DNA of 64,000 nt from Verrucomicrobiia bacterium. Lineage in GTDB: Bacteria; Omnitrophota; Omnitrophia; Omnitrophales; Aquincolibacteriaceae. How positions within the stretch are numbered: the first letter of the stretch is position 1; each line of letters begins with the position of its first letter. The position numbers and the translations under genes are program-made. This document shows positions 8,901 to 47,500 of the stretch, in pieces. The notes beneath the pieces are model-generated. The model searched no databases, had not been told where the DNA came from, and worked only from the letters and a program-made list of their open reading frames with translations. The DNA is taken from assembly GCA_035495615.1 (NCBI GenBank), contig DATJFP010000092.1, positions 6,914-70,913 of the forward strand, in the 5' to 3' direction.

Positions 8901-8942
8901 TGTTTCCCATTCTCCTTTAGGATGACGTACCGCCGGTCCGGG

Positions 8943-9080
8943 CGGTTAACCTTCGATCATGTCCCAAACATTAAAAACCATACGAAATACCAGCCGGCCT
9001 CCCGCTACGATCAACGGCCAGAACAAAAAGGTGCGGTAAAGCGCCGGGCCGGGATAAAAATGTTTGCGCCAGGGTTTCAT
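8943..9080 (-). CDS. possible 45-aa hydrophobic micro-protein translationally coupled to wza-like gene
   Basis: My own translation reads MKPWRKHFYPGPALYRTFLFWPLIVAGGRLVFRMVFNVWDMIEG. Its ATG overlaps the upstream TAA stop (TAATG at 9078-9082). It has one predicted TM helix and was not in the ORF track because it is under 60 aa. Confidence 0.3.
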
Positions 9081-10102
9081 TAATTATTCTTCCCCCCGGA
9101 GATGAACCCGCCGTCTTTGCTGCCGAAGCCGAGTTCATAAACGGCCGCGGCCTGGAAGAGCGGGCCCACGAGCCTCGAGAAACCGTTGACGAACCGGTCG
9201 AAGTAGCGCTGATGCACGACGAGCGTGTCGCCCGGCTGGAGCAGGAAGTCTTCCGCCGAGTCGCCTTTTTCGATCAGTTTCTTCAAATCAACTTTTTTCT
9301 TCGCGGCCTTGTCATTGTCGCGGAATTCCGAAGGACGGATGACATAAACGCGCTTGAGCGAGCCGTCCATGCGGGGAAGGCCCGCGGCCACGATGGCTTC
9401 TTTCACCGTAATCTTATTGCCCTTCATGGCGAACTTGCCGGGCCGGTTAACGAAGCCGAACACGTAGATGTTCTTGCTGCGGTATTCCGAGATCATGACG
9501 GCCACGTCGGGATAACGCACATATTCTTTCAGGCGCTCGGTGATGTCAGCCTTCAGCTCTTCTTTCGTCTTGCCTTCGGCCTTGACGTCGCCGACGAAGT
9601 TGTACTGGATGTTGCCGTTCGGGTCCACGATGTAGCGGCCCGAGAAATCAGGCTGGTTGCGGACGATGATCGTGACCACGTCGTCCACGCCCAGGGTGTA
9701 ATCGGAGCCTTCGCCGATGATTTCGACGTAGGGCGAGTACTTAGAATACGGGGAGACTTCATTGGCCGCGTAGGGATCGTTCGCACCCTGCTGCGGCTGC
9801 TGCGCGTAGGCCGGCATCATCTGGCCCTGCTGATAAGCCGTGGGCGGAGCGGACATGGGAGACCCCATGGGGCCGTAAGGAGAGCTCATGAAGCTCGCAT
9901 ACGGGCTGAATTGCGTCTGGTAGTTGGTGCTGTATCCCACGGAAGCCACGGGATAATCCCCCACTACAGCGCTGGTGCCATTCATATCGGTGCCGCTGTC
10001 ATTGCCGCGGTACGCGAGCGGCTCGGCCGAAACATAGGGCACGGCCAGAATCATCACCAGCACGCTGGCGGCCCCTTTTATTAGTGCAGTCTTTAATTTC
10101 AT
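9080..10102 (-). CDS. polysaccharide export protein (Wza/KpsD family: Poly_export + SLBB domains), with signal peptide
   Basis: Poly_export core YTLGVDDVVTIIV...YIVDPNGNIQYNFVGDVKAEGKTKEEL and SLBB-like ITVKEAIVAAGL...LQPGDTLVV. The likely start is MKLKTALIKG (ATG at 10102) with a signal peptide. An N-terminal S/Y/P/Q-rich low-complexity linker follows. The ORF extends to 10141. Confidence 0.85.
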   Translation of the reverse strand: MKLKTALIKGAASVLVMILAVPYVSAEPLAYRGNDSGTDMNGTSAVVGDYPVASVGYSTNYQTQFSPYASFMSSPYGPMGSPMSAPPTAYQQGQMMPAYAQQPQQGANDPYAANEVSPYSKYSPYVEIIGEGSDYTLGVDDVVTIIVRNQPDFSGRYIVDPNGNIQYNFVGDVKAEGKTKEELKADITERLKEYVRYPDVAVMISEYRSKNIYVFGFVNRPGKFAMKGNKITVKEAIVAAGLPRMDGSLKRVYVIRPSEFRDNDKAAKKKVDLKKLIEKGDSAEDFLLQPGDTLVVHQRYFDRFVNGFSRLVGPLFQAAAVYELGFGSKDGGFISGGKNN

Positions 10103-10130
10103 GGAATCCATCCTCACTTTGTCCGGGAAT

Positions 10131-10325
10131 TTAAATCTCATAAACGGAGTTCACAAGCCTTTCCAGCGCGTCCAGGTCTTCTTGCATGTAAACACGCCAG
10201 CCTTTCCAATCACGCTTGGGCTTTTTGACCTTGCCGGCCTTTTCCCACCGCATGATGGTCTTCGTGGTAACGCCGATCTTTTCCGCGACTTCTGTTATGG
10301 TGTAGCGGCCATTATCTTTCAACAC
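10131..10325 (-). CDS. small excisionase/MerR-type helix-turn-helix (HTH_17) DNA-binding protein
   Basis: 64 aa. YTITEVAEKIGVTTKTIMRWEKAGKV matches the HTH_17/excisionase-family motif. It overlaps the wza-like start by about 10 nt. Confidence 0.65.
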   Translation of the reverse strand: MLKDNGRYTITEVAEKIGVTTKTIMRWEKAGKVKKPKRDWKGWRVYMQEDLDALERLVNSVYEI

Positions 10326-20033: not shown

Positions 20034-21680
20034 TCACTGAGCCGCGGCCGCCGGAGGCTGAGCCGCTGTCCCCGCTTCGGGTTGAGCGTTTTGTGCGGGC
20101 GGAACCGTAGTTTGCCCGCTTTGCATGCTTGCTGTTTCGTCTGCTGCGCCTGAGGCCTGGGCGGCGGAGCTCGACGCGGGCGCATGCGCCGCAGCGCTGC
20201 CCACGTTTTGTTTCCCCGCGACCCTTTGGCCGGCCGGTTGACCTTCCGTATCCACCATGGTCACCGTGACAAAAAATAGTGTTTCGACTTTTTTATTAGC
20301 ATCTCCTGCCGTTTGACGTTTTGATCTGAAAGCTTTACCTACCAGGGGTAGATCTGCCAAATAAGGTACCTTCGATTCATTCATCGCGACATTGTCCGTG
20401 AGCAGACCGCCGATGGCGATGGTTTCACCGCTGCGGATCAGCACCTGCGTGATAGCCTTTGTCACGTTAAAGCTTGGAATTTGGAACTCACCGAAATCAA
20501 TGTTGGCCCCGGTCGAGCTGACCTCGGGGTTGAGGTCCACAAGAATTTCTTCTTCGGAATTGATGTGAGGCGTCACTTTCAGGACAACGCCGACCTGGCG
20601 GTAATAAAAACCGCTGATCTCGACGCTGCCCGTCGTTTCGTTGCGCTCGAAAGTGGGAAGAGGAATATCGCTTCCGACCTGGATGTTCGCGGACTGGTTG
20701 TTCAAGACCACGATCCTGGGATTGGAAACAACTTTGGTGTTGCTGCGGGTCTTCAGCATCTGGAGGATGGCGCTGAAACCTGAAAAATCCAGCGTGCCGT
20801 AATTATAGGTGGTGCTGGCGGAGGCTTCCGGTTCCGGAAAGCCGCGAGGATCGTTCGGATTTGCAGCGGCAGTGCCCGGGTCCGTATTGAGAACCGGGAA
20901 ATACTGCTGCAGCGCATTACCGATGTTACCGCCGAACAAATTATCGGTTTTGCTGGCAAACGGAAAAGTCGTGGGTCGGCTCGAGCCCGAGAGCTTGAGA
21001 AGCTGCGTCGCGGAATCGCCGCCGGTACGCCATTCGACGCCGAGGTTTTCCGCGGTCCCGACGTCGGTTTTGACGACCTTGGAATCGATGTACGCCTGCG
21101 GCGTCACCTTATCCAGTTTTGTCACGACTTCTTCGATGCTGTAAAGGTTGGTGGGAATGTCCGTGATGACGAGCATATTCGTGCGCTCCGCCACCTTGAT
21201 GCGTCCGCGTTCGGTCAGCATGTCTTTGACCGCTTCCATGACTTCCGCGGCCTTCGAGTAATTCAGGATGAACGTCTTGGTGACAAGCGGTTCGGCCGCG
21301 AGATTTTCCCGCGTGGTCACGCGGATGATATTGCCGTCCTTCTCGAACACGTAGCCGTAGGTCCGAAGCACCACCTCAAGCGCCTTCTTCCAGGGCACGT
21401 TTTCCAGGCGAATAGTCACGGTCCCCTGCACTTCCGGGCCCGCCACGATATTGACGCCGCTTTTGAGGCTCATGACGCGGAGCACCGTATTAATGTCCGC
21501 GTCTTTGAAATCAAGCGTCACCGTGGTCATCGCTTCTTCATTATTATTGGCCTCAACCGCGGGCTGGCTGACGGGCTGCGCCGCAGGCTGCTGGGCATAG
21601 ACCGTCTGAGAAACCAGGGTCAAAAAGGAGGCGAGGAGGGCGACGAACGGCTTATTTCTTTTGGGGGCTTTTAATATCAT
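20034..21680 (-). CDS. pilQ: type IV pilus secretin
   Basis: Signal peptide, an AMIN-like N-terminus, N0/N1 domains (VTLDFKDADINTVLRVM), and a secretin domain (RIVVLNNQSANIQVG...ETIAIGGL...VPYLADLPLVGKAFRS). An Ala/Gln/Pro-rich C-terminal tail is also present. Confidence 0.9.
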   Translation of the reverse strand: MILKAPKRNKPFVALLASFLTLVSQTVYAQQPAAQPVSQPAVEANNNEEAMTTVTLDFKDADINTVLRVMSLKSGVNIVAGPEVQGTVTIRLENVPWKKALEVVLRTYGYVFEKDGNIIRVTTRENLAAEPLVTKTFILNYSKAAEVMEAVKDMLTERGRIKVAERTNMLVITDIPTNLYSIEEVVTKLDKVTPQAYIDSKVVKTDVGTAENLGVEWRTGGDSATQLLKLSGSSRPTTFPFASKTDNLFGGNIGNALQQYFPVLNTDPGTAAANPNDPRGFPEPEASASTTYNYGTLDFSGFSAILQMLKTRSNTKVVSNPRIVVLNNQSANIQVGSDIPLPTFERNETTGSVEISGFYYRQVGVVLKVTPHINSEEEILVDLNPEVSSTGANIDFGEFQIPSFNVTKAITQVLIRSGETIAIGGLLTDNVAMNESKVPYLADLPLVGKAFRSKRQTAGDANKKVETLFFVTVTMVDTEGQPAGQRVAGKQNVGSAAAHAPASSSAAQASGAADETASMQSGQTTVPPAQNAQPEAGTAAQPPAAAAQ

Positions 21681-22116: not shown

Positions 22117-22740
22117 TTAGGTGCCGGCTGCGGCGGCGGCCTGAGGCTCCTGCAGCGATACGGCCGAAAGCGTCAGGTGGACCATGTGCTTTTCCGGCGT
22201 GTCCTCTTCCGGCGTGATCGTGAAGTCTTCCACCCGCAGGATCTTGTCGTAGGATTCCACGCGGCTGATGAAGTCGGCGATCTGATGGTAGCCGCCTTCC
22301 ACGGTGAAATCAAAATAATCAGCTTTGTACTTCGCGTCAAAAGGCTTCGGAAAATCCGTTTTGACCTCCTGCGGCGAGGACGAAACGATCTTGATCTGGC
22401 TTTCGTCCGCAAGTCTTGCGATCTTTCCCAAAAGCAGCGATGTCTCCCCCGGAAAATAAAGGCGGCCTTTGACGTCTTTGATGAATTTTTCCGATGCTTC
22501 TTTTTCCTGAGTCCACACCGTTTTTTTCCGTCGCAGCGTCTGCAGCTGGATGATCTGCCCCTGCACGGCCGCGATCTGAGTCTTGACCATGGGCCGCTTG
22601 ATCCAGGCGGGCCAGACAAGAAAATACGTCAGCAAGAGCGCCCCGGCCGCTCCGGCCCCGATCATCGTCCAGGTCTTCTTATCGATGGATTTGGCCAGCA
22701 CGAGAAAGTCCTGAGGCGTCATCTGGTTCAGCGGCTTCAT
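22117..22740 (-). CDS. pilO: type IV pilus assembly protein PilO
   Basis: Single TM helix plus a periplasmic domain. The start was set at the ATG at 22740, which overlaps the pilN stop (ATGA). Confidence 0.6.
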   Translation of the reverse strand: MKPLNQMTPQDFLVLAKSIDKKTWTMIGAGAAGALLLTYFLVWPAWIKRPMVKTQIAAVQGQIIQLQTLRRKKTVWTQEKEASEKFIKDVKGRLYFPGETSLLLGKIARLADESQIKIVSSSPQEVKTDFPKPFDAKYKADYFDFTVEGGYHQIADFISRVESYDKILRVEDFTITPEEDTPEKHMVHLTLSAVSLQEPQAAAAAGT

Positions 22741-23348
22741 GCTTTTTTCGCCTCCCCTGTGTCCCATTGAAAAATCGCCGTGAACTGCGTGAGCTCGACG
22801 TTTTCCACGATTTGACGCGACGTCGTGAGCGAAAGCTTGGTCTCGGGCATCAGCTCTTTGAGCTGGTGCAGGTAAAGTTCGATGGATTCGATGCTGGATT
22901 TTTCCTTAGTCGCCAGGCAAAGCCCCTGGATCACGAGATCCCGCTTCTGGGCCTGATGTTTCAGGCTCACGCCCGTCAGCCACCCGCTCTCCGGCAGATT
23001 GCCGCTCAGCCACTCGAGGACCTGCGTGAGGGGCCGCTGCGTCGTGACGAACCGCTCCAAAAAATCCTTTTCGGTCTTGAGGACGTTTTCCACTTCGTTT
23101 TTCAGGTTGTTGAGGACCTGGGCCTGCGGCTGGACTTCCTTCCACTCCGCGTCCAGCTTTTTGAGACGCGCGTTGCTGCCCAGATAATCGAAATAAAAGA
23201 AGACGGTCAGGAGCGCCAGGCAGGCGCCTGCGGCGATGCCGATCTTGACGAGCGGCAGCTGGGTTGTCTGCGCTTTTTCTTTGACGCGGAATTCTTCGGG
23301 TAAAAGGTTGATTTCCAGCATCACGGGGCCTTCTAGTTCCTCAAACAA
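22737..23348 (-). CDS. pilN: type IV pilus assembly protein PilN
   Basis: INLLPEE N-terminal motif, one TM helix and a coiled coil. The start may be the internal MLEINLLPEE. Confidence 0.65.
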   Translation of the reverse strand: MFEELEGPVMLEINLLPEEFRVKEKAQTTQLPLVKIGIAAGACLALLTVFFYFDYLGSNARLKKLDAEWKEVQPQAQVLNNLKNEVENVLKTEKDFLERFVTTQRPLTQVLEWLSGNLPESGWLTGVSLKHQAQKRDLVIQGLCLATKEKSSIESIELYLHQLKELMPETKLSLTTSRQIVENVELTQFTAIFQWDTGEAKKA

Positions 23349-24457
23349 AGTCCCAGCGCCACGGGAATCAGGCGCTGATTTTTTTCAAAAAGAGCCCGGT
23401 CCATGCCCGGCGCCAGGATCAGCTTGTCGGCCTTCATCAATTCGGACGGGATGCCGAGCTGCTGCTGGAGGATGCTTCCGACGACCTGGAGGTCCCCTCC
23501 GCCTCCGCCCAGGTAAATCTTCTGCACCGGGCGCGCGTCCGTCACTTGTCCGAGATAATAATCGAGCGTCACTTTCAGGTCGGAGCACAACGTCTCCACG
23601 GCTTCCACCAGGACTTGCTTGCTTTCCGGCGTGGCCGCACTTCCGCCTTCCAGAGTCTTCTCCGCGTCTTCCTGCGTCATCCCGAGCTTCCTCCGCAGGC
23701 GTTTGGCAATGTCTTTGCCCCCGAACGAAATGTCCCGGATGAAACGCGGCTTACCATCCAGCACGATGCTCAGGCTGGAAATTTCGTCCCCGATGTCCAG
23801 GAACGCTATGGCCCCGGTCTTGAATTCTTCGGGGTGCAGGTATTCGAGCGCGTTCAGCGAGGCAAGGATATCCACGTCGATCAGCCCGATCGAGATGTCG
23901 GCGTCCTGGAAATCCTTGATGAGCGGGTAGATCTCCTCTTTTTTGACCGCAATCAAAAGCAGGTCGAGCAGGACTGCCGCATTGTCAGACTTCCGCTCCC
24001 CTAATATATGGAAGTCCAGGATAACTTCGTCGAGTTTGAACGGGATGTAGTTCTCCGCCTCGTAAGCGATGGCGCTGCGGAGTTCGGCCGGGCTCATTTT
24101 AGGAAACTGGATAAAACGGATGATGACGCTCTGCCCTTTCACGGAGATATGGACTTTTTCGGGCGAGATTCCCGCGAACGCTTCTTTCAGCGCATCAGCG
24201 CTCTTTCCCGACTCTTTCGGACGACGCACGATTTTGAAGTTCTGCACGGAGATGCCCGCGGCACTCTTTTCGAGGTCCAGCACCAGGATCTTCGAGGCCC
24301 CGTAATCGCAGGCGACGGCCCTGACGGGCCCTTCTTTTGCCGCGGCACCCGATTTCATGCCGCCTAATTTACCGAGCAAAGGGCCGGCCTTTTCCTGGAG
24401 CTTCTGCAGGACCGGTTGAATTTTGTCGAGTTTCGGAAGGTCGAACTTCATGTTCAC
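23333..24457 (-). CDS. pilM: type IV pilus assembly protein PilM (actin-like ATPase fold)
   Basis: 374 aa with the FtsA/PilM-like architecture (GGGGDLQVVGSILQQQLGIP). Confidence 0.75.
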   Translation of the reverse strand: MNMKFDLPKLDKIQPVLQKLQEKAGPLLGKLGGMKSGAAAKEGPVRAVACDYGASKILVLDLEKSAAGISVQNFKIVRRPKESGKSADALKEAFAGISPEKVHISVKGQSVIIRFIQFPKMSPAELRSAIAYEAENYIPFKLDEVILDFHILGERKSDNAAVLLDLLLIAVKKEEIYPLIKDFQDADISIGLIDVDILASLNALEYLHPEEFKTGAIAFLDIGDEISSLSIVLDGKPRFIRDISFGGKDIAKRLRRKLGMTQEDAEKTLEGGSAATPESKQVLVEAVETLCSDLKVTLDYYLGQVTDARPVQKIYLGGGGGDLQVVGSILQQQLGIPSELMKADKLILAPGMDRALFEKNQRLIPVALGLCLRN

Positions 24458-24603: not shown

Positions 24604-25095
24604 CTAGCCAGCGATCGCGGTACCACCAGCGCAACCCGCAGCGGCGCCAGCAGGAGCACCTGCACCGTTCACCGAACCGACGATCACACCCGTCTGGTCA
24701 ACGCAATAGGTGTTGGTCGCAGTCTGGTTGGCCACAACCGGCGTGGAAAGCAGCGAGAACGTGTTCGGGGTACCCGCACCACCGCCCGCATAAGCGAGGT
24801 TGAAGCCGTGTTTACCACCGGCAGCGCCCCAAGACGCGTCCAGATAAGCCGGAACAGCGCCCGTCAACGCGGCAACGTTCGCCGCATAGGCCGGAGGATT
24901 TTGTGCAGCGCGAAAGCTTTCATTTGAAGAGCTAAAAGCACGAAGGTCCGTCTTCATGGCGCCTTCGTTAGCGTTCATCCTAGCACGTAGCAAGTTCGGA
25001 ATCGCGATCGCGGCGAGCAGGCCGATGATGGCCACCACGATCATAATTTCTACAAGCGTAAAACCTTTTTGGTTCTTCCTTATCATGCGTATCAT
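24604..25095 (-). CDS. pilA: type IVa major pilin / pseudopilin (copy 1)
   Basis: Class III signal QKG|FTLVEIMIVVAIIGLLAAIAIPNL with Glu at +5. Has a C-terminal Cys pair (YCVDQ...AAGCAGG). GGAGG lies 6 nt upstream of the ATG. Confidence 0.85.
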   Translation of the reverse strand: MIRMIRKNQKGFTLVEIMIVVAIIGLLAAIAIPNLLRARMNANEGAMKTDLRAFSSSNESFRAAQNPPAYAANVAALTGAVPAYLDASWGAAGGKHGFNLAYAGGGAGTPNTFSLLSTPVVANQTATNTYCVDQTGVIVGSVNGAGAPAGAAAGCAGGTAIAG

Positions 25096-25333: not shown

Positions 25334-25825
25334 TTAGCCGGAAATGGCCGTACCGCCCGCACAACCGGCCGCCGCTCCGGCAGGAGCGCCCGCGCCGTTT
25401 ACCGATCCTACGATCACGCCCGTCTGGTCCACACAATACGTGTTCGTCGCTGTCTGGTTGGCAACGACAGGCGTCGAAAGCAGCGAATACGAATCCGGAG
25501 TACCCGCTCCTCCGCCGGCATAGGCCAGGTTAAAGCCATGCTTTCCGGTAGCCGCTCCCCACGAAGCATCCAGATAAGCAGGCACCGCACCGGTAAGAGC
25601 GGCCACGTTTGCCGCAAAAGCCGGCGGATTCTGTGCCGCCTGGAAGCTGGTGTTGGCAGAGCTGAAAGCCCGAAGGTCCGTCTTCATGGCACCTTCATTG
25701 GCATTCATCCTTGCACGAAGCAGGTTCGGAATCGCAATCGCGGCCAAAAGGCCGATAATGGCAACCACGATCATGATTTCGACAAGCGTAAAACCTTTTT
25801 GATTCTTCTTTGTAATAAAATTCAT
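25334..25825 (-). CDS. pilA: type IVa major pilin / pseudopilin (copy 2, ~94% identical to copy 1)
   Basis: Same prepilin leader and C-terminus as copy 1. The start was set at the ATG at 25825, which has GGAGG at 5-nt spacing. The ORF extends to 25837. Confidence 0.85.
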   Translation of the reverse strand: MNFITKKNQKGFTLVEIMIVVAIIGLLAAIAIPNLLRARMNANEGAMKTDLRAFSSANTSFQAAQNPPAFAANVAALTGAVPAYLDASWGAATGKHGFNLAYAGGGAGTPDSYSLLSTPVVANQTATNTYCVDQTGVIVGSVNGAGAPAGAAAGCAGGTAISG

Positions 25826-25958
25826 ACATGCCTCCATACAATCAGATTTACTGCTAATTCAACTGTAAGTTATTCCTACCAAAACTTCAAATCCTCACAA
25901 GACTAAATTTCGTTAAAATCTCAGTTTTTTTCATCTCGTTAAAAACTCTTTCCGCTTC

Positions 25959-27188
25959 CTATTTAATATGCTGCGTCAGCGTCAGGATCGGCAGGAAGAG
26001 CGCGATCACGATGCCGCCGATGACCACCCCGAGAAACAGGATGATCAAGGGTTCGATCAGGGAAGTCAGGCCGTCCACCGCCGCATCGACCTGCGTGTCG
26101 TAAAAATCGGCAATCTTCATGAGCATCTCTTCCAATTCGCCCGTCTCTTCGCCGACGGCGATCATGCGCACGACCATCTGGGGGAAAACGTCGCTTTTGA
26201 GGAGCTGTCCTGAGATACTTTCCCCTTTCTTGACCGAATCCATCAGCGAGGTGATCACCAGCTCAATGCGCCTGTTGCCCGACGTCTTCGCGACGATTTC
26301 CAGGGACTGCAGGATGGAAACGCCGCTTCGGACAAGGGTGGCGAGGGTCCTCGAAAATTTACTGACGGCCACTTTCAGGAGGATGGGCCCGAAAATCGGC
26401 ATTTTGATGATGAAAGAGTCAAAGGCCAATCGTCCTGCCGGCAGCTTGATGAGCTGCGTGAAAAGGAAGATCGCGCCGCCGATACCCCCCAGGATCAGCA
26501 GCCAGTTGGCGGCCATGAAACGGCTGATGTCGATCAGCGTCTGCGTGATGACCGGCAATTTCGCGTCCAGACCTTCGAAGATCTCCGCGAATTTCGGGAT
26601 AACGAAGGTCATCATGCCGAAGGTGATCAAAAAGGCGATGATGGTGACCGACAGCGGATACATCATCGCGGACTTCACCTTCTTCTGCAGGGCGCTCGTT
26701 TTTTCGAGGTAGTTGGCGACGCGGTCGAGAATCTCTTCCAGGCTTCCGCTGGTTTCACCGGCGCGCACCATGTTGATGAAGAGAGTCGAGAACACCTTCG
26801 AATGTTTCTGCATGGCCTCGGAAAAACTTTTGCCGCTCTGCACGTCCTGGTGCATGGTTTTCAGGATGACGCGGAACCGGTCTTTCTCCACCTGCTCGCC
26901 GAGAATGTCCAGCGCCTGGATCAACGGGATGCCCGCGGACACCAGCGTGGCCATCTGGCGGGAAAAGACGACGAGGTCGTCCAGCTTGACGCTGCCGCTC
27001 TTTCCCTTTCTCTTGGCCGGGCCTTTGGAGACGTTGAAAACTTTCTTCGCCTGGATCTCGTTCACCCGGACGATGATGAGGCCCTGGGAACGCAGCGTGC
27101 CGACAAGCGTGCCCACGTCCGGAGCTTCCTGAATCCCGCTCTGATCTTTGCCTGTTCTGTCTTTGACCTGATACTCGAAGGTTGGCAT
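25959..27188 (-). CDS. pilC: type IV pilus assembly platform protein PilC (GspF family)
   Basis: Two T2SSF repeats (SAGIPLIQALDIL and RSGVSILQSLEIV) and three TM helices. Confidence 0.9.
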   Translation of the reverse strand: MPTFEYQVKDRTGKDQSGIQEAPDVGTLVGTLRSQGLIIVRVNEIQAKKVFNVSKGPAKRKGKSGSVKLDDLVVFSRQMATLVSAGIPLIQALDILGEQVEKDRFRVILKTMHQDVQSGKSFSEAMQKHSKVFSTLFINMVRAGETSGSLEEILDRVANYLEKTSALQKKVKSAMMYPLSVTIIAFLITFGMMTFVIPKFAEIFEGLDAKLPVITQTLIDISRFMAANWLLILGGIGGAIFLFTQLIKLPAGRLAFDSFIIKMPIFGPILLKVAVSKFSRTLATLVRSGVSILQSLEIVAKTSGNRRIELVITSLMDSVKKGESISGQLLKSDVFPQMVVRMIAVGEETGELEEMLMKIADFYDTQVDAAVDGLTSLIEPLIILFLGVVIGGIVIALFLPILTLTQHIK

Positions 27189-27192
27189 AAGC

Positions 27193-28902
27193 TTAGTGGT
27201 CCGAAGCGGTCACCCGCAGGACTTCCTCCATGGTGGTTTGGCCGAGTTTGAAAAGAGAGAAGGCATTTTCAAACAGCGTCTCCATTCCCTTTTTAACGGC
27301 AGCCTCGTGAATAACATTGCTGGATTTTCTTTGAATGATCAATTCCCTGATTTCATTGTCGATCGTGAGAACCTCGGTTGTGCCGAGGCGCCCGTAGTAA
27401 CCGGTGTTGTTGCATTTCGCGCAGCCCTTGCCTTTAAAGCTCTTAATGTCCTTCATGTCTTCGGGTTTCATGTGGCAGCGCCGCATCACGTCTTCCGGAA
27501 CTTCGCACGGCGCTTTGCAGAACTGGCAGATTTTTTTCATGAGCCGCTGCGCGGCCACCCCGACCAGCGAGGACGCGATGAGGAAAGGCTCCACACCCAT
27601 GTCGATGAGGCGCGTGACGGCGCCGGCCGCGCTATTGGTGTGCAGCGTGCTGAAGACAAGATGGCCGGTCAACGCGGCTTTGACCGCGATGTCCGCGGTT
27701 TCGCCGTCGCGGATTTCGCCGACCAGCACGATGTCCGGGCTTTGGCGCAAAAGCGAGCGCAGCCCCGCGGCAAACGTGAGCCCGACTTCGGGGATCACGC
27801 CGGTCTGGCTTATGCCTTCCACCTGGTATTCGACGGGATCTTCGATGGTCATGATGTTCCGGTCGGCCGTGTTCAACGTCCCCAGGATCGTGTAGAGCGT
27901 CGTGGATTTTCCGCTGCCCGTGGGGCCGGTCACGAGCATCATGCCGTAAGGATGCTTGATGATCTCGGCGATCCTGGACGTGGGCCTTTCCGTGAAGCCC
28001 AGTTTGTCGAGGCCGGATTTCAAACCCGATTTGTCCAGCACGCGGAGCACCATTTTCTCTCCGAAATACGTCGGCAGGATGGAAACGCGGAAATCCACCT
28101 CCGTGTTGTGAACCTTGATGCGGAAGCGCCCGTCCTGCGGCACGCGCTTTTCCGTGATGTCCAGCTGGGAAATGATTTTGACTCGGGCGACCACGGCGGG
28201 ATAAACGTCCTTGGCATGCGCGAACGATTCGTGAAGCGCGCCGTCGATGCGGTAGCGCACGCGGAATTCTTTTTCGTACGGCTCGAAATGGATGTCCGAA
28301 GCGCGAGACTTCAGCGCGCCGTCCAGGATCACGTTCACCATGCGCACGACCGGGGCATTGTCGATCTTGCCCCCGGAGCCCTTGTCCTCATCTTTGTTGT
28401 CTTCCTTGATGACTTCGAGGCTGTCTTCGTCGATGCCTTCGATGATTTCATCCAGGTTGGCGCTTTCGGAATAGTACTGCTCGATCAGGCCCGAAATCAT
28501 TTTGGGAGGCGCGAGAACCAGAGCCACGTCGCAGCTGAGAAGCCCTTTGATGTCGTCTTTCAGCATGAGATCGAAAGGATTGCTGGTCGCCAGCGTAACA
28601 AGTTTTTTAATGCGCGACAGCGGGATGACGCGATAACGTTCCGCGATCTTGGCCGGAAACGATTTGATGATTTCTTTGGGGATACGGTAAGCCGGAAGAT
28701 TCAGGAGGGGGATCCCGAGATGGTTGCTCATGAAATCGATCATCTCGTCGTCCTTCATCATCTCTTTTTCGGTGATCAGCTGCAAAACCGTCTTTTTTTC
28801 TTTCCGTGCAAGAGGCATCAGCTCTTTCAACTTTTCCGCGTCCACCTTTTTTTCCTCGACGAGGAGCTCGGCCAGTTTGTCCGCGGAAAAATGAGGCGTC
28901 AT
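27193..28902 (-). CDS. pilB: type IV pilus assembly ATPase PilB/GspE family (copy 1)
   Basis: GspE N-domain, Walker A LVTGPTGSGKSTT, Asp box, His box, and a tetra-Cys zinc motif (CQFCK...CAKC). The start was moved to the ATG at 28902 (MTPHF), which is preceded by GGGAGGGAAGG. Confidence 0.9.
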   Translation of the reverse strand: MTPHFSADKLAELLVEEKKVDAEKLKELMPLARKEKKTVLQLITEKEMMKDDEMIDFMSNHLGIPLLNLPAYRIPKEIIKSFPAKIAERYRVIPLSRIKKLVTLATSNPFDLMLKDDIKGLLSCDVALVLAPPKMISGLIEQYYSESANLDEIIEGIDEDSLEVIKEDNKDEDKGSGGKIDNAPVVRMVNVILDGALKSRASDIHFEPYEKEFRVRYRIDGALHESFAHAKDVYPAVVARVKIISQLDITEKRVPQDGRFRIKVHNTEVDFRVSILPTYFGEKMVLRVLDKSGLKSGLDKLGFTERPTSRIAEIIKHPYGMMLVTGPTGSGKSTTLYTILGTLNTADRNIMTIEDPVEYQVEGISQTGVIPEVGLTFAAGLRSLLRQSPDIVLVGEIRDGETADIAVKAALTGHLVFSTLHTNSAAGAVTRLIDMGVEPFLIASSLVGVAAQRLMKKICQFCKAPCEVPEDVMRRCHMKPEDMKDIKSFKGKGCAKCNNTGYYGRLGTTEVLTIDNEIRELIIQRKSSNVIHEAAVKKGMETLFENAFSLFKLGQTTMEEVLRVTASDH

Positions 28903-30662
28903 GCGGCCTTCCCTCCCGTTTTCGCCTGGTCCGCGGCGGTCACGCGGTAAACCTCTTCCAGCGACGTCTCCCCTTCCGAGGCCTTGCGCACGGCGCATTC
29001 GCGGAGCGTGGTCATGCCCTGCTCACGCCCCTGCGCCTTGATGTCGTCCGAAGAAGCGGCCTTTGCAATCATCGAAATCACCTGCGGCGTCATTTCCAGG
29101 ATTTCCGTGATCACGGTGCGGCCGGCGTAACCCGAATTGCGGCAGCGCTGGCAGCCTTTCGGCTGAAAAAAGGTGTGGGGCTTCGAAGGATCCAGGCCCA
29201 GGTTTTTCAATGTTTCGGCATCGACTTCATAAGGCTGGCGGCATTTGAAGCACAGGCGGCGCACCAGGCGCTGGGCGGAAATCATGATCACAGTCGATGC
29301 GATGAGAAATGGTTCCAGCCCCATGTTCATCATGCGCGTGACGGAGCTCGCGGCATCGTTGGTGTGCAGCGTGCTGAGCACGAGGTGGCCGGTGAGCGCG
29401 GCCTTGACCGCGATGTCCAGCGTGTCGTTGTCGCGGATTTCACCAATGAGGATGATGTCCGGATCCTGGCGCAGGATCGAACGCAGCGCCGCCGGAAAAG
29501 TCAGCCCTACGGTGTCGCGGACGTTCACCTGGTTGATGCCGATCATCTGGTATTCCACGGGGTCTTCGACCGTTGTGATGTTCACTTCGGGATCGTCCAG
29601 GTATTTGAGCACAGAGTAAAGCGTCGTGGTTTTGCCGCTGCCCGTAGGGCCCGTCACCAGGATCATGCCGTGCGGCCGCTGCGCGGAATCTTTGATGATC
29701 TGCTGCTCGCGGTCGTTGAACCCCAGCTTGCTGATGTCGTGGCTCTGTGACGACGTGTCCAGAATACGCAAGCACACCTTCTCGCCGAAGCTCGTCGGCA
29801 AAATCGAAATGCGCATGTCCACCTGGCGTTTTTCGGCTTTGACCTTGATGCGGCCGTCCTGCGGGACCCGGTGTTCGGCAATGTCGAGGTTGCTCATGAC
29901 CTTGATCCTGGAAACGATGGCCGAGGCCAGCGACTTGGGCGGCCGGATGACTTCTTCCAGAAGCCCGTCGACGCGCGCGCGGACGCGCACGTGGTTTTCC
30001 CAGGGCTCGATGAAAATGTCGCTGGCGTGCCGCTTGATGCCCTCGATCAAGAGCCGGTTCACGAGCTTGATGACCGGCGTTTCGAACGCTTCCTTCATCA
30101 GGTCGGAAGTCTGGACGGCGGGGCCATCCTGCTCGATCTCGATGGCCTTCACGATGTCGTCGAGCTCCTCGCTGTAATTTTTCTCCGAGCCCCCGGCCGC
30201 CGGCGCCTCGCCCGGCTTGGCTTCGAAGTAGTACTTCTGCACGTATTTTTTCAACACGCTGTATTGCGCGACCGCGGCCTTGATGCGCAGGCCCGTGATG
30301 CTGTGGAGCTCATCGATGGCCTTCAGGTTCAGCGGATTGGCGAGCGCCACGGTCAACGTGTTCTCCAGGCGCGTGATCGGCAGAGCGTTGTACTTCTCCG
30401 CGATTTTGGCGGGAATCAGCTTGATGAGCTCCGGCTCGATGACGAAGATCGCGGGATTGACCGATGTCATGGCGTACTCCTGGCTGAGTACTTTGACGAG
30501 CGCGCGCTCGTCGCATTTGCCCAGCCGCAGGAGAACGTCGAGGAGCGGCTCTTTGGTTTCTTCGTGCTCGCGAAGGGCCTGATGGATGTCGCCGGGCGCC
30601 GCGACGTTACCCTTGATCAGGCTATTTTGAAGCTCGGCGTAAATATTTTCTTTTCCCGGCAT
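28899..30662 (-). CDS. PilB/GspE/MshE-family secretion ATPase (copy 2, tandem paralog)
   Basis: Walker A LVTGPTGSGKTTT and a tetra-Cys motif (CFKCR...CQRC), with the same architecture as copy 1. It overlaps copy 1 by 4 nt. Confidence 0.85.
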   Translation of the reverse strand: MPGKENIYAELQNSLIKGNVAAPGDIHQALREHEETKEPLLDVLLRLGKCDERALVKVLSQEYAMTSVNPAIFVIEPELIKLIPAKIAEKYNALPITRLENTLTVALANPLNLKAIDELHSITGLRIKAAVAQYSVLKKYVQKYYFEAKPGEAPAAGGSEKNYSEELDDIVKAIEIEQDGPAVQTSDLMKEAFETPVIKLVNRLLIEGIKRHASDIFIEPWENHVRVRARVDGLLEEVIRPPKSLASAIVSRIKVMSNLDIAEHRVPQDGRIKVKAEKRQVDMRISILPTSFGEKVCLRILDTSSQSHDISKLGFNDREQQIIKDSAQRPHGMILVTGPTGSGKTTTLYSVLKYLDDPEVNITTVEDPVEYQMIGINQVNVRDTVGLTFPAALRSILRQDPDIILIGEIRDNDTLDIAVKAALTGHLVLSTLHTNDAASSVTRMMNMGLEPFLIASTVIMISAQRLVRRLCFKCRQPYEVDAETLKNLGLDPSKPHTFFQPKGCQRCRNSGYAGRTVITEILEMTPQVISMIAKAASSDDIKAQGREQGMTTLRECAVRKASEGETSLEEVYRVTAADQAKTGGKAA

Positions 30663-30664
30663 TC

Positions 30665-31147
30665 CTAACCCGCTTTTCTCTTTTCGACTTTCGGGGTTTG
30701 TTTGGAGTAGGCAAGGTCCAGCATGTTCAAAATCTCGCTCGCGGTGGAAACAAAGACCTGGGGTTTGAGCTTCAAACGCTGGCGGAGGTCTTCGATGACG
30801 GTGGCATTCAAGGGATCGCTGACCGCCACAAAGACCCGGGTTTCGTCGTAGTCAATGACCACAAGCACCGCATGGCGGCAAAATTCTTCGGTCAGCAGAT
30901 GAACGGCTTCCATGTTGACCGCGTAATTCACCAGAGGCAGGTACGGCATTCCGAGCTGACGGCACAGCGCGCTGACGAGATCCTCTTCGCTCAGATAGCC
31001 GAGCTGGATGAGGATCTGGCCGATAAGGCCGCCCTCTTTTTTCTGGTAGCAAAGCGCTTCTTCCAGGTTCTCCTGCGTGAGGAGCCCGTCTTCAATAAGC
31101 AGTTCTCCCAAACGGCGTTTGGGTTTCTCCCTGGGGACAGTATCCAT
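30665..31147 (-). CDS. stand-alone MshEN-type c-di-GMP-binding domain + GspE N-terminal (T2SSE_N) domain protein, no ATPase domain
   Basis: Tandem 24-aa motifs RLGELLIEDGLLTQENLEEALCYQ and LIGQILIQLGYLSEEDLVSALCRQ separated by a 5-aa spacer (KKEGG). This is the canonical MshEN RLGxx(L)(V/I)xxG(I/F)(L/V)xxxxLxxxLxxQ x2 arrangement. Confidence 0.7.
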   Translation of the reverse strand: MDTVPREKPKRRLGELLIEDGLLTQENLEEALCYQKKEGGLIGQILIQLGYLSEEDLVSALCRQLGMPYLPLVNYAVNMEAVHLLTEEFCRHAVLVVIDYDETRVFVAVSDPLNATVIEDLRQRLKLKPQVFVSTASEILNMLDLAYSKQTPKVEKRKAG

Positions 31148-31272
31148 GCTATAAAAAGTATAATGAATGATAGTTTTGTTTTCAATTTGCTCTAAGATAG
31201 ATTTAATATAAAAAGGACAAAATGATGCTAGTTAATGCTATCTAATGATATCTAAAGATAATTCTGAAGAAA

Positions 31273-41788: not shown

Positions 41789-42844
41789 TCAGGCCGCGGT
41801 TTTACGCGCGGAATGCAGCGGGCTTTTGGAAATGGGCAGCGTGAAAAAGAAACTGCTCCCTTTGCCGAGCCCTTCGCTGAAAATGCCCACGGTGCCGCCC
41901 TGCGCTTCCACGAGCTGCTTGACGATCGTCAGGCCCAGGCCGCTGCCCGAATATTTCTTGCCGTGATTGTGCTGGGCGCGGAAGAATTCCTGGAACACAT
42001 GGCCCTGGTCTTCGGGAGCAATCCCGATCCCGGTGTCGTCGATCTTGACCTTGACCTGCTGCGCGGCCTGGTCATAAGCGGCGGAAAGCACGATCGTGCC
42101 GCCCGGATCGGTATATTTAATGGAATTATTGACGAGATTGACGATTACCTGGGTCACGCGCTCCAAATCGCCCACGACATCAGGAAGCACGTCCGGAATC
42201 TCGTCCCGCAGTTCGATCTTCTGCTGCTCGCACACGATCTGATGGTCGTCGATGCAGGCTTTCAATACCGGAACCAGGTCGAAGACGTCCTTGCGGCATT
42301 CGATCTTCCCCCGCCGGATGCGGGAAAGATCAAGCAGTTCATCGATGATCCGGTTCAGCCTCTGTCCCTGCATGAGGATCTTCCGGACGCGCCGTTTCTG
42401 CTCGTCATTGAGCGGCCCAAGCTTCTCGCGGACCAGGATTTCGCCGAAGCCGTTAATCACCGACAGCGGCGTGCGCAGCTCGTGGGACGCGACAGAAAGG
42501 AACTCTTCCTTTAATTTGTCGAAGCGGTCTTTGGAGGCCTCGATGTCGGCCAGGCTGAACCCGAAATTCTTTTTCGTTCCCGCCAGCAGGAAGATCATGG
42601 CCGGCACCGCGCTCATGACAAGGCAGAGCGTCTCCGACCACGGCTCCTTCCATTCCGGGGCGAGAAGTGCCTGGGCGAAAAAAATCAGCGTGATGACGCC
42701 GAAAAGCAGGACGATTGAAATTGAAAACATGCTGCGCAGCCCGGCGGGCAGAAGCATGTTCTTGAACACGAAAAAGAAAATGAGGAGATAGGCGCTGCCG
42801 ACGAGGAGATTGCCGTAAACGTGGATGACCGCCGAGGGGGGCAT
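41789..42844 (-). CDS. membrane sensor histidine kinase (HisKA + HATPase_c)
   Basis: Three or four N-terminal TM helices, an H-box SHELRTPLSVINGFGEIL, and N/G1/G2 boxes (DDTGIGIAPEDQ...GSGLGLTIV). Confidence 0.85.
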   Translation of the reverse strand: MPPSAVIHVYGNLLVGSAYLLIFFFVFKNMLLPAGLRSMFSISIVLLFGVITLIFFAQALLAPEWKEPWSETLCLVMSAVPAMIFLLAGTKKNFGFSLADIEASKDRFDKLKEEFLSVASHELRTPLSVINGFGEILVREKLGPLNDEQKRRVRKILMQGQRLNRIIDELLDLSRIRRGKIECRKDVFDLVPVLKACIDDHQIVCEQQKIELRDEIPDVLPDVVGDLERVTQVIVNLVNNSIKYTDPGGTIVLSAAYDQAAQQVKVKIDDTGIGIAPEDQGHVFQEFFRAQHNHGKKYSGSGLGLTIVKQLVEAQGGTVGIFSEGLGKGSSFFFTLPISKSPLHSARKTAA

Positions 42845-42902
42845 GGGGCTAAGGCCTCTTCTGCGACTTACGAGTTTGGATCATTCCTTCCGGTCCTTTG
42901 AT

Positions 42903-43517
42903 TTAAGCGCTTTTCGCGCCCGAGGTGCCGTTCTTCCCGCCGCGGTAATATTCGATTTTTTCCAGAAGCTTGTCCAGGGTGAACGGCTTGTGGATGACGT
43001 CGTTGGCCCCGGATTCTTTCATCTTGGCCTGCTCGCCTTCGCCTTTCAGTCCCGTGACCGCGACGATGATGACTTCTTTGAAGCGGGGGTCTTCGCGCAC
43101 GAACCGGCAGAACTCGAAACCGTCCAGCTCCGGCATGCGGAAATCCAGAAGCACCATATCGGGCCTCTCTTCGACCAGCTTCGCGCCGGCCGTGAATCCG
43201 TTGTTGACCGTAATCAGCTTGAGGCCCTGGATGCCGGAGAACATGTCCTGCAGGAGTTCCAGGACGTCCGTTTCATCGTCCACGGCGAGGATGACGTAAT
43301 CTTTCCTTTTTTCCAGCTCTTCTTCGCCCTGCCAGGGAAGATTGTAGGCCTGCGCGAAATGAACGAGCTCGTCATGCGCGATGCGGCGGTGCCCGCCGAC
43401 GGTCGTGAAACAGCTGAACTTCCCGCCTTCGATCCACCGGATCACGGTGATCGGCGTGACCCCCAGAAGCCTGGCCACTTCGTGCGTCGTATAGAGCTTT
43501 TTGGTTCCCTGTTCCAT
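42903..43517 (-). CDS. response regulator with inverted architecture: N-terminal excisionase/MerR-type HTH_17, C-terminal receiver domain
   Basis: N-terminus LYTTHEVARLLGVTPITVIRWIEGGKF. C-terminal REC domain with the acidic pair ILAVDDETD, phospho-acceptor LLDFRMPELDG, AVTGL and HKPF. Confidence 0.8.
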   Translation of the reverse strand: MEQGTKKLYTTHEVARLLGVTPITVIRWIEGGKFSCFTTVGGHRRIAHDELVHFAQAYNLPWQGEEELEKRKDYVILAVDDETDVLELLQDMFSGIQGLKLITVNNGFTAGAKLVEERPDMVLLDFRMPELDGFEFCRFVREDPRFKEVIIVAVTGLKGEGEQAKMKESGANDVIHKPFTLDKLLEKIEYYRGGKNGTSGAKSA

Positions 43518-44551: not shown

Positions 44552-47500
44552 TTATGCCGAGGATTTGACCTGCATTTCCTCGAGCAAGGAATCGGTCAAC
44601 GAAGCGGCGACGGCTTCGGCGACCAGCATGCCGCGGTTACCGTTCGGAGCCTTGGCCGCGTCAAAGACGTACGGCGGAATTTCCTTCAGACCCAAGATGG
44701 ACAGGACGAGCGCGGTCTCGATCAGTTTACGGATGGCAAGATCGCGGTCCTTGGCTTCGGCCGCGGGATTGACGACAGCAAGACCGACGGCCAGTTTGCC
44801 GGCGTAGTCCGCGTTGACGGCCTGATACATGTCGGATTCGGCGCCCTGGACCATGATGGCCTGGTTGCCTTCGGCGGCGATCTCGGCATTGAGGTTGACC
44901 ATCGTGCCGAGCTGATCCACGTTCGTGGCAAACCGCACGGTCTGCGTTCCGTAGTAGGCGGCCAGCTGCGCCCAGCGCGCGTCGAACTGCACGCCGGCGA
45001 TGACCACTTGGTGGCGCCTGGCGAACATTTCGGTTTCGAGGGCCGGCATCGAGATCATCATGGCCTGCGCCGGGTGCACGCCGCCCATCGCGCCCTGGAC
45101 ATTCATCACCCAATCCGTGACGGTCAGGAGGCCGTCTTCCTTGGCCAGCGCTTCTTTGAGTTCCGCGCCCGTATGCTGCGTGGCCATACGGATGAGAAGC
45201 TCGATGTTTTCGCCGCGGCCCTGGAAGTAGTCGCGCGCGGCGGCGGACGTCTTCGGATCGTTCAGGATGCCTTCGATGTCGCCGAGCGTCGTCGAGTACG
45301 CGGCCAGTTCGTGCAGGACGTCGAACGCGTGAGAATTGTAGCCCAGCGTATCCAGCGAAGCGCGCAGCTGCGGGTTGGCGGCCAGGGCTTCGATCTTTGC
45401 ATGCAGTAAGGCGTGCGTCTTTTCGTGGTTCAGGAAGATCCGCAGGTGCTGGGCGCGGATCGTGCGGTCCAGGCTTGTGTCCACGAAGCGTTCGGGCGTC
45501 ACGACGATCTTGGTGCTGCCGTCTTCCATGTGGCGCGCATAACCCAGACGGCGGTTGTCCTGCGCGAGCAGCGTGTCTTCCGGGCGCTGCACGAAGAACA
45601 TATGGATGTTGTCGGGATTCGTGCCGCGCAGCATGGAGAGCACTTCCTCCGGCGATTCGAAGGCCGCCGCGAGGACGTTTTCGAGTTCGGCAGTCTGTTC
45701 CGGCGTGAGGCCGAGGTCCTGGCCCGCGAGTACGCCTTCGAACGGGGCTTCGCGCAGTTCCGACTTCGGCGCGGCCGGCGCCGTTTCACGCAGCTCGCCG
45801 CGGATTTTCTTGAGCGCCTGAACAAGCGTATCCCCTTCGAGGCCGGCAAGATTGTCCAGCCATGTTTTCAGCTGGCCGGGCAATTCTTCGATGCCGGAGA
45901 AGAACTGGTCGGCGCCCGCCTGGATCGCAATGCCGTCGTTCAGGATCCGGTCCACGAGGCCCTTCATGAATTTCACTTCTTCGATCGCCGGCATCTGCTG
46001 GCTCTTGTCCGCGATGCGGTTGTACATGATCGGGACGAGGAGCGCCATGACGCGGGCGATCAGCGCGTTGACGTCGGCGCGCTCCGGAGCGGACGCGTCG
46101 AGGCTGGCAAGCAGCTGGTCGAGCGACTCCAGCGCGCCGAGCAGCTCTTTCGCGGAACGGTTCTGGTCCTTGCGGCTCTGGATTTCGTCGATCGTCCAGC
46201 GCAGGCCGTTCACGAGATCGGCGCGGCTGTTCGAGAAATCCACTTTCGGCATGAATTCGGACAGCTCGCGGAGCGAAACAGGATCGGCCTTGGCCATGCG
46301 TTCGTCCATCCAGGACTTGGGCTTGAACTCGATGATGACATGCCGGCTTCCGACCTTGGTGATGAACTGGAAGGCCTGGCCCTGGCGCGCGAGGCCGTTG
46401 TACTTTTCACGCGTCTCCTTGACATTGTCGCCGTCATAGATCTGGTCTTGCGGGTAAGTCGCTTCGTCGTCCAGGCGCTTGTCGCCGATCGGCAGGAGCT
46501 GGTAGCGCGTTTCGCCAAGGCCCGTGCCCGCATAGCCGTAAGCGCCTTCGGCGAGCTGGTAGATACCGTCATAATCACGCAGCGTATCGCCCATCACGCT
46601 GGAAGGCAGGACATCGTAAGTTCCCCTCGCGCTCCTCGGATGGATATGATAGAAGCCGCCGAGCTGATTCTTGGCGTAAACTTCGACCTGGTTGTGCTTC
46701 AAGCCGGTGGTCAGGATAAAGCGCTCGCGGCCCGTGGACGGGTCGATCTGGGCGCTGATCGCGAATTCGTACGGCATCTTCTTCATCATTTCCAGCTCGT
46801 CGCGCGTGGGCTTGGCCGAAAGCTCGACCACATAACGGCCGTTCGCACCGAGATCGCGGTGCAGCGCGCGCGTGGCCGAGGCCTGCGCGAGGACGTCGTC
46901 GCGGTCGAGCGCGGCCGCGGCGGCTTCCGCTTCCGCCTTCTCCTGATGGAGTTCCATGTAGCGTTCCGACAGCTGCTGCATCTGAGACGGATCCATCGTA
47001 CGGGCCATCTCCGACAGCTGCTGCATTTCCTGATCGATTTCTTCGGGACGGTTCAGGATCTTGAGCTGTTTGGCCAGCTTCAGGCTGTCGTTCAGAACCT
47101 CGGCCAGCGAAACGGTTCCTTCCATGCCGAGGAACTTCACGTTGTAGGCGTGGACGCGAGGATTGACGCTGCCCGCTTCCCAGAGCGCGGCCATGGCCAG
47201 GATGCCGAGCTCCGTATCGTCGGAGCGCAGGAACTGGGCGATGAGGCCGAGCGCCCGCTGCAGGCGCGCATCCAGCTCGTCCTGCGTCGGAGGCGTGGGA
47301 GGAATTCCCGCGCCGGCCTTGCGTCCGTCATACTGCAGGGCGACGTCGATGATCTTGTCGAAGACCTTTCTCATGGTGCGGTTCTTGAACGCCACTTCAT
47401 CAACGGAATCATTCGGCGCGTAATCCTGCAGCTCTTTGGCCAGCGCCTTGAGCTCGGTGCCGTCCGCGTCGTAATCCGCGTCCGCGGCGAGTTTCTCAGC

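Follow-up and report, generated by a model that had tools for sequence, protein, structure and literature searches.

A free-standing MshEN domain protein heads a type IVa pilus operon of Omnitrophota and may act as a c-di-GMP receptor in trans

How could a second-messenger signal reach a pilus motor when the sensing domain is encoded as a separate protein? MshEN domains bind cyclic di-GMP (c-di-GMP) at 6 nM to 0.5 µM and promote pilus extension in MshE and PilB (PMC5013675; PMC11731258; PMC11656802), e.g., extension of the MSHA pilus upon c-di-GMP binding to MshE (PMC11656802). The relay from the liganded MshEN domain to the PilB motor is unsettled even for MshE, PilB, and PilF (review PMC11656802). 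We analyzed a 64,000-nucleotide stretch (positions 6,914 to 70,913 of contig DATJFP010000092.1; hereafter the window) from an assembly labelled Verrucomicrobiia bacterium, which GTDB places in the Omnitrophota. There, a gene for a free-standing MshEN domain of 160 amino acids (aa) heads a type IVa pilus operon, directly before the genes of two PilB-type ATPases. A first-pass annotation, made from the letters alone, had suggested that this protein is a trans-acting c-di-GMP receptor. The features on which our analysis centers are as follows:

30665..31147, minus strand: stand-alone MshEN protein gene, 160 aa, ATG start, TAG stop
31043..31114, minus strand: c-di-GMP motif I, residues 12-35, RLGELLIEDGLLTQENLEEALCYQ
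31028..31042, minus strand: 5-residue spacer KKEGG, residues 36-40
30956..31027, minus strand: c-di-GMP motif II, residues 41-64, LIGQILIQLGYLSEEDLVSALCRQ; its first residue is Leu, as in PilF GSPII-B (L196)
30695..30955, minus strand: MshEN_C (T2SSE_N1-like) alpha/beta subdomain, residues 65-151, assigned from PF05157, secondary structure, and a Foldseek match to GspE N1
28899..30662, minus strand: PilB1, 587 aa, Walker A GPTGSGKT, MshEN-fold N-domain with degenerate motif
27193..28902, minus strand: PilB2, 569 aa, Walker A GPTGSGKS, MshEN-fold N-domain with degenerate motif

The MshEN consensus (Wang et al. 2016) consists of two 24-residue units of the form RLGxx(L/V/I)(L/V/I)xxG(L/V/I)(L/V/I)xxxxLxxxLxxQ that stand 5 residues apart. 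Residues 12-64 of the small protein agree with the strict consensus at 21/22 positions, the sole deviation being L41 at position 1 of motif II. The first-pass annotation had quoted the letters of this tandem motif and its KKEGG spacer exactly, but the second repeat starts with LIG and not with the RLG ascribed to both. NF053729, the 53-position c-di-GMP_motif model of NCBIfam with a curated cutoff of 38 bits, scores the protein at 66.4 bits (E = 1.5e-18), which together with the 21 matching positions puts the motif far beyond chance. By contrast, the Pfam family now called MshEN (PF05157, formerly T2SSE_N), a search with which had been proposed as a check, does match at 54.3 bits (cutoff 23.1) but covers residues 65-151 only, i.e., the region already noted as resembling a GspE N-domain. 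Since it thus describes the C-terminal subdomain alone and matches both ATPases too, PF05157 does not discriminate for c-di-GMP binding, and it is NF053729 that supports an MshEN domain over a generic T2SSE_N domain.

The protein carries neither a PF00437 match nor a Walker A motif in Pfam and NCBIfam searches and a motif scan and is therefore not a PilB, though some sources still give its homologs that name; to TIGR02538 it aligns over positions 2-142 only. Pfam and NCBIfam searches likewise found no EAL or PilZ domain in it. An AlphaFold2 model built with 63 homologs (mean predicted local distance difference test score, pLDDT, of 88.9) has helices at residues 13-19, 25-38, 42-48, and 54-65 followed by a beta/alpha unit. 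The top Foldseek matches of this model are MshE in complex with c-di-GMP (5HTL; 5HTL_B E = 2e-12, TM scores 0.66/0.75) and c-di-GMP-bound structures of PilF GSPII-B. From PDB sequences, phmmer retrieved MshE(1-145) of V. cholerae and, from Thermus, the three PilF GSPII domains. Motif, profile, and fold therefore confirm that the 160-aa protein is a free-standing MshEN domain without an ATPase domain, as had been proposed.

Mapped to the numbering of MshE (after PMC5013675), R9/L10/G11 correspond to R12/L13/G14, L25/L29/Q32 to L28/L32/Q35, L39/G40 to I42/G43, and L54/L58/Q61 to L57/L61/Q64, so that all contact positions of MshE are kept except R38, which is replaced by L41. All members of the stand-alone family carry a hydrophobic residue (L, M, V, or I) at this position. 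A leucine also stands there in GSPII-B of Thermus thermophilus PilF, where L196 stacks on a guanine and the L196R exchange weakens binding 4-fold relative to the wild type at 6 nM (PMC11731258); L41 is therefore compatible with tight c-di-GMP binding and may even favor it. The glycines equivalent to MshE G11 and G40, the backbone amides of which read the guanine, are Gly in 28/28 stand-alone proteins, and a G11L exchange in MshE abolishes c-di-GMP binding (PMC5013675 supplement).

The two ATPases downstream of this protein share 43% identity and look catalytically competent because both retain Walker A, the Asp box, GEIRD, the His box, and two CxxC pairs. PilB2 truly starts at the ATG at 28902, which overlaps the PilB1 stop codon as ATGA and gives 569 aa as in its orthologs; the mechanically called open reading frame (ORF) of 601 aa (27193..28998, minus strand) is over-extended at its start. 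The first-pass annotation had held that neither ATPase has a clear MshEN motif and had asked for a check of their N-termini, which indeed turned up a degenerate version in both. The best 53-residue windows of PilB1 and PilB2 fit 12 and 13 of the 22 consensus positions, respectively, versus 21 in the small protein, and NF053729 gives 20.5 bits for PilB1 and no match for PilB2. The MshEN-fold domain itself is retained in both, however, with PF05157 scores of 66.8 and 67.8 bits. What is missing are the key glycines: at the position of MshE G40, Gly occurs in 0/24 PilB1 and 1/25 PilB2 proteins (with L, I, V, F, S, or T instead), and the position of G11 holds Q, R, K, H, S, or A. The terminal Gln residues of the motif are also often lost. 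The small protein is thus an extra domain and not a substitute for a missing one, given that the ATPases lack only the ligand-contacting residues. Comparison across the loci shows a complementary loss of key glycines, in which the ATPases appear to keep the fold without the ligand site and the small protein appears to keep both.

An independent hidden Markov model (HMM) of the 53-residue motif, built from 29 fused proteins from outside the Omnitrophota including MshE, was applied to all three proteins. Stand-alone proteins score 45-76 bits across both clades of the family, whereas in the main clade, to which the window belongs, PilB1 and PilB2 reach 8-35 and 6-30 bits, respectively. A subclade of four loci (L003, L021, L022, and L024) has higher values of 47-52 bits for PilB1 and 35-48 bits for PilB2, and its PilB proteins pass the NF053729 cutoff at 39-59 bits, with the glycines nonetheless replaced, mostly by Ser or Ile. 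At these loci, a PilT-like gene lies upstream of the stand-alone MshEN gene. They may represent an intermediate stage of motif decay.

The arrangement is conserved in the phylum. Among 5.8 billion proteins searched, 67 homologs of the stand-alone protein came up from Omnitrophica/Omnitrophota metagenome-assembled genomes (MAGs) or unlabelled metagenomes, with lengths of 143-236 aa, a PF05157 match in every case, and no ATPase domain on record. NF053729 matches 63/63 aligned family members at E <= 1e-5. In a library of 1.84 billion representatives, about a quarter of the best 150 matches were single-domain proteins of 123-215 aa. On three contigs whose homologs are 60%, 56%, and 45% identical, the genes run MshEN-only, PilB, PilB, PilC, pilin, and a gene-order scan of GTDB species genomes (80 loci) revealed about 29 Omnitrophota loci at which an MshEN-only ORF of 147-203 aa is followed by PilB1 and then PilB2. 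The Walker A motifs keep the two ATPases apart across these loci, with GPTGSGKT (rarely GPTGCGKT) in PilB1 and GPTGSGKS (rarely GPTGCGKS) in PilB2. The gap between the MshEN gene and PilB1 is mostly below about 20 nucleotides (nt), some ORFs even overlapping, and this spacing differs in length and frame among loci, which excludes a conserved frameshift or readthrough fusion. The placement at the head of the pilus ATPase operon, before two tandem PilB genes, thus holds well beyond the window.

Within the family, three proteins of about 204 aa (P0054-P0056) have a second MshEN_N unit inserted, giving the layout (MshEN_N)2-MshEN_C, and three loci (L025, L027, and L029) have a spacer of 6 residues, not 5, between the motifs. 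In other phyla of the GTDB scan, the MshEN domain is mostly fused to the ATPase. We found separate genes in a Planctomycetota-labelled MAG with the order PilT-like, MshEN-only, and PilB with a degenerate motif of 20.9 bits (L041:4797-8301), in a Stahlbacteria MAG with an MshEN-only gene that overlaps a T2SSE ATPase core of 344 aa (L081:5995-7616), and in a Neomarinimicrobiota MAG with an MshEN-only gene between pilD and a sigma-54 response regulator (L031:5118-8068).

Where does the free-standing domain come from? In a neighbor-joining tree of 120 MshEN-type domains, the stand-alone proteins (including the one from L041) form one clade that is nested among motif-bearing fused domains of other phyla. 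The N-domains of PilB1 and PilB2 form two further monophyletic clades, and the internal branching order is the same in all three, from which it follows that the trio is old within the phylum and has been inherited together. BLASTP of the stand-alone protein gave no alignment to the PilB1 N-domain and 19% identity without gaps to that of PilB2; in view of this divergence and the three separate deep clades, we rejected a recent duplication of a PilB N-domain as the origin of the stand-alone gene.

In an exploratory analysis, we also compared pairwise distances over 19 loci with all four genes, the contributions of PilC and of the two ATPase cores being removed by regression. For the stand-alone protein, the residual correlation was 0.47-0.58 with the PilB1 N-domain (permutation p about 0.0005) and 0.39-0.43 with the PilB2 N-domain, while the two PilB N-domains correlated at 0.21-0.26 with each other; in a PilC-only control, the value for the stand-alone protein and the PilB1 core was about 0.04. 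This pattern is the one predicted by a physical partnership with the PilB N-domains and may be read as a lead, though not as proof.

Taken together, we lean slightly toward reading the 160-aa protein as a c-di-GMP receptor that acts in trans on the extension motor of the type IVa pilus. It would be co-transcribed and translationally coupled with the PilB1 and PilB2 extension ATPases, and its N-terminal four-helix bundle is predicted to bind one c-di-GMP in a site where R12 and L41 would stack on the guanines and where the G14 and G43 backbone amides, Q35, Q64, and two leucine triangles would complete the contacts. The liganded protein would then act in trans, most likely by packing on the degenerate MshEN-fold N-domains of PilB1 and/or PilB2 in a way that can be likened to the extra GSPII domains in Thermus PilF. 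Such docking would tune how the ATPases engage the PilM/PilC platform and thereby control pilus extension, and by analogy with MshE and PilB, high c-di-GMP would favor extension. Ligand binding, docking partner, and sign of regulation are all inferred, and for docking on the ATPases we rely on translational coupling, co-diversification, and the exploratory covariation with the PilB N-domains.

A more far-reaching version, which we consider unlikely, is that the detached MshEN domain is a shared, exchangeable c-di-GMP "key" that chooses which of two intact PilB motors engages the platform. PilB1 (GPTGSGKT) and PilB2 (GPTGSGKS) may in that case be matched to the two pilins of the operon. If true, ultra-small predatory or parasitic Omnitrophota would have a gear shift for attachment to hosts that a second messenger controls, and the principle of a detachable sensor would recur in other phyla, as hinted at by the Planctomycetota-labelled and Stahlbacteria loci L041 and L081.

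Several observations weigh against a c-di-GMP receptor of the PilB motors. The covariation signal comes from only 19 non-independent loci and fast-evolving domains and may partly reflect a shift between clades. The PilB proteins of the subclade described above still pass the NF053729 cutoff, so that the stand-alone protein is not simply a replacement for a lost sensor. PilF can bind PilMN without any of its GSPII domains, and stimulation requires only the proximal one (PMC6325625), which makes it puzzling even in this best-studied case how the motor would receive a signal from an MshEN domain that is distal or detached. Finally, no GGDEF, EAL, HD-GYP, or PilZ genes and no c-di-GMP riboswitch were found in the 64-kb window. 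As none was recognized there, the assumption that this genome has c-di-GMP metabolism comes from phylum-level reports, i.e., GGDEF domains and PilZ homologs described in Omnitrophota (preprint 10.1101/2023.11.21.568195).

Other roles for the protein must be weighed against the same data. One tentative possibility, which we place on the unlikely side, is that it serves as a c-di-GMP-dependent adaptor or competitor at the PilM or PilC platform sites that gates or chooses a PilB paralog. MshEN_C has the same fold as the N1 domain of GspE, which binds the cytoplasmic domain of GspL with its PilM-like fold, and Foldseek aligns the C-terminal subdomain to GspE N1 in 4PHT and 2BH1 (GspE-GspL, EpsE-EpsL; ranks 22-25), but these matches are weak (E = 0.04-0.14). 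PilF reaches the platform via PilM and needs its proximal GSPII domain for PilMN stimulation (PMC6325625), and PilM, a PilN-like gene, and PilO lie in the same operon as the MshEN gene. However, this gene always stands directly before PilB1 and tightly coupled to it, not beside PilM, and among the four genes compared (those of the stand-alone protein, PilB1, PilB2, and PilC) the covariation signal points to the PilB N-domains. The target could also lie outside the pilus altogether, with the protein acting as a general c-di-GMP effector or buffer (e.g., in transcription or for another secretion system) and its operon position being incidental. PA3740 of Pseudomonas aeruginosa, which binds c-di-GMP, has no listed ATPase domain, and is linked to swarming (PMC5013675 supplement), sets a precedent for this, and the stand-alone gene of L031 is flanked by pilD and a sigma-54 response regulator and not by pilB. 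Yet even there the neighbors are pilus-related, and adjacency to PilB1 is kept across the whole family tree including members of 41-45% identity, which makes a non-pilus target quite improbable.

We consider it very unlikely that the protein serves the PilB1/PilB2 motor as a structural or assembly subunit independent of any ligand and keeps the motif merely to build a four-helix bundle. Some MshEN domains, e.g., those of XpsE (PMC5013675) and PilF GSPII-A (PMC11731258), indeed do not bind c-di-GMP, and the PilB paralogs have the same fold without the motif. But the invariant G14, G43, Q35, Q64, and leucine triangles are exactly the residues lost in these non-binding paralogs, from which it follows that they are not needed for folding, and the profile score is well over the curated cutoff. 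The reading as an artefact, i.e., a frameshifted or split N-terminus of a multi-MshEN PilB caused by a sequencing error or pseudogene formation, is effectively refuted. PilB proteins with 2-4 MshEN domains do exist (PMC5013675 supplement Table 4; L032, L073, and L076) and the stop and next start are only 2 nt apart in the window, but about 29 independent assemblies have separate genes with differing spacing and frames, the 67 homologs from the database are short without exception, and the family is monophyletic and clearly constrained.

The receptor that we propose resembles several known systems in part. Its best structural match, V. cholerae MshE (5HTL), shares the 53-residue tandem motif, the two-subdomain fold, and the pilus-motor context, but there the domain is fused to the ATPase and motif II starts with Arg, whereas here it is a separate 160-aa polypeptide with Leu at this position. 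Thermus thermophilus PilF offers a parallel for an extra MshEN-type domain distal to the ATPase, GSPII-B (8PDK), the motif II of which starts with Leu as well (L196). GSPII-B is a high-affinity sensor (6 nM) with a non-binding sister, GSPII-A (PMC11731258), and is not the domain on which PilMN stimulation depends, which is the ATPase-proximal one (PMC6325625). Unlike in the Omnitrophota, the three domains of PilF sit in one chain and c-di-GMP binding persists in the ATPase-proximal one; here, the sensor is a protein of its own and neither paralog has the key glycines in its ATPase-proximal domain. The locus does not fall among multi-MshEN PilB proteins of the PilF-like, (MshEN)n-T2SSE kind, which are defined by a single chain, as a stop codon splits the genes.

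A functional likeness exists to the FimX-PilZ-PilB systems of Xanthomonas and Pseudomonas, in which a non-binding PilB N-domain receives the c-di-GMP signal in trans through docked proteins, as seen for Xanthomonas in 7LKM and 7LKO (PMC8389850; PMC11656802). These two structures are among the phmmer and Foldseek matches of the stand-alone protein. The likeness ends there, since a degenerate EAL sensor (FimX) and a PilZ bridge have unrelated folds and are not encoded before pilB. PA3740 is closer in kind as an MshEN-type receptor without a listed ATPase domain for which experiments have shown binding of c-di-GMP, but its MshEN_N is joined to a highly diverged N1-like domain, and the sources consulted do not report that it stands in a pil operon together with degenerate PilB paralogs. 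Since MshEN architectures including ATPase-less proteins such as PA3740 and (MshEN_N)2 proteins have been reported before (PMC5013675, Supplementary Table 4), a stand-alone MshEN protein is in itself not new. We found no description, in open-access papers and on bioRxiv, of such a protein, with a perfect motif, fixed at the head of a type IVa pilus operon directly before two PilB paralogs that have MshEN-fold domains without the key glycines; the arrangement is absent from the MshEN paper (PMC5013675), a 2024 review of PilB cofactors (PMC11656802), and Omnitrophota genomics papers (PMC10066038; 10.1101/2023.11.21.568195).

With the sensor separate and the motors' own copies lacking the key glycines, experiments in vitro could mix, titrate, and mutate sensing and catalysis independently of each other. 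Type IVa pili, near-universal in Omnitrophota, are thought to mediate attachment to host or prey (PMC10066038). A c-di-GMP receptor that heads the pilus operon thus points to second-messenger control of host attachment in this uncultured phylum.

In the window, the operon runs in the order MshEN, PilB1, PilB2, PilC, two pilins, PilM, PilN-like, PilO, a small ORF, and PilQ, with 2 nt between the TAG stop of the MshEN gene and the ATG of PilB1. The genes downstream of the ATPases are:

25959..27188, minus strand: PilC platform protein
25334..25837, minus strand: type IV pilin with N_methyl motif
24604..25095, minus strand: second type IV pilin with N_methyl motif
23333..24457, minus strand: PilM
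22737..23348, minus strand: PilN-like ORF, assigned by position only, without Pfam match
22117..22767, minus strand: PilO
20034..21680, minus strand: secretin PilQ

An ORF of 193-194 aa without a Pfam match fills the same slot between PilM and PilO at two related loci (L001 and L002), with which the flanks of the window (RimO-like, PgsA/PgpA, CinA, LigT, a transaldolase-PGI fusion, LysM-amidase, and RecN-like) are also syntenic. Both of these contigs contain close homologs of the MshEN gene, the named relatives of which are Omnitrophota/Omnitrophica MAGs, and so the window probably derives from Omnitrophota in spite of its NCBI label, Verrucomicrobiae bacterium. No PilT-like ATPase was found in the 64-kb window.

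The start of the MshEN gene bears on how it is annotated. A public NCBI entry (P0001, VL688_11895) is 99% identical but has 148 aa as it starts at the TTG of codon 13, which drops R12, turns L13 into the initiator Met, and truncates the c-di-GMP motif (codons 1-12, 31112..31147, minus strand). Because K-K-R-L-G-E upstream of and at this TTG codon is kept in the family alignment, we take the ATG at 31147 as the real start. The lesson for annotation is twofold: a Pfam "MshEN" match is silent on the c-di-GMP motif, and a public gene call that is 12 codons late removes the first residue of that motif. The plus-strand frame of 30665..31147, translated for comparison, gave unrelated sequence only. 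Upstream, a gap of 125 nt that is AT-rich separates the gene from an endonuclease III-like gene and contains one promoter-like site:

31157..31185, minus strand: TTGAAA-17-TATACT, 10 nt before the ATG

With 10/12 consensus matches, but one site found versus 0.7 expected, this consensus match is suggestive of a promoter at best. At the other end of the protein, a tail of the form [KR]K[AVT][GSA]-COOH (30668..30679, minus strand; P0002-P0053) is kept in the window's subclade of stand-alone proteins and has low pLDDT in the AlphaFold2 model. The tail may act as a short linear motif for docking or turnover; as a universal docking peptide we rejected it because it is confined to one subclade and missing from others.

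Candidates for c-di-GMP proteins elsewhere in the window that had come up in pattern searches did not hold. The sole GGDEF regular-expression match (41813..42514, plus strand) runs antisense to a histidine kinase gene and is without a Pfam match. Of the PilZ-like regular-expression matches, none of those taken further matched PilZ: the one at 2856..4694 encodes a GlmS-type amidotransferase/SIS protein, and Pfam gave no match for those at 7650..9083 (plus strand) and 461..1342. No Rfam riboswitch reached its gathering threshold in the window. An AAA_31 (EpsG-like) protein at 5827..6912 lacks an N-terminal MshEN_N, unlike EpsG of Methylobacillus. It belongs to an exopolysaccharide-type cluster (5827..10141, minus strand) of an AAA_31 tyrosine-kinase-like protein, an AAA_22 ATPase, a Wzz/GNVR chain-length protein, and Poly_export/SLBB.

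The window also contains a giant ORF of 6476 aa (44552..63982, minus strand), the first and last 1000 residues of which have no Pfam match. Giant genes are a reported hallmark of Omnitrophota and are usually followed by pilZ genes (preprint 10.1101/2023.11.21.568195). No pilZ gene was found beside this one, the ORFs just downstream encoding an apparent HTH-REC (helix-turn-helix, receiver) regulator and proteins without matches. Between the gene of the transaldolase-PGI fusion and the giant ORF lies a two-component pair (41789..43517, minus strand):

41789..42844, minus strand: histidine kinase with HisKA and HATPase_c domains
42903..43517, minus strand: 204-aa protein that by its sequence looks like a helix-turn-helix and receiver protein

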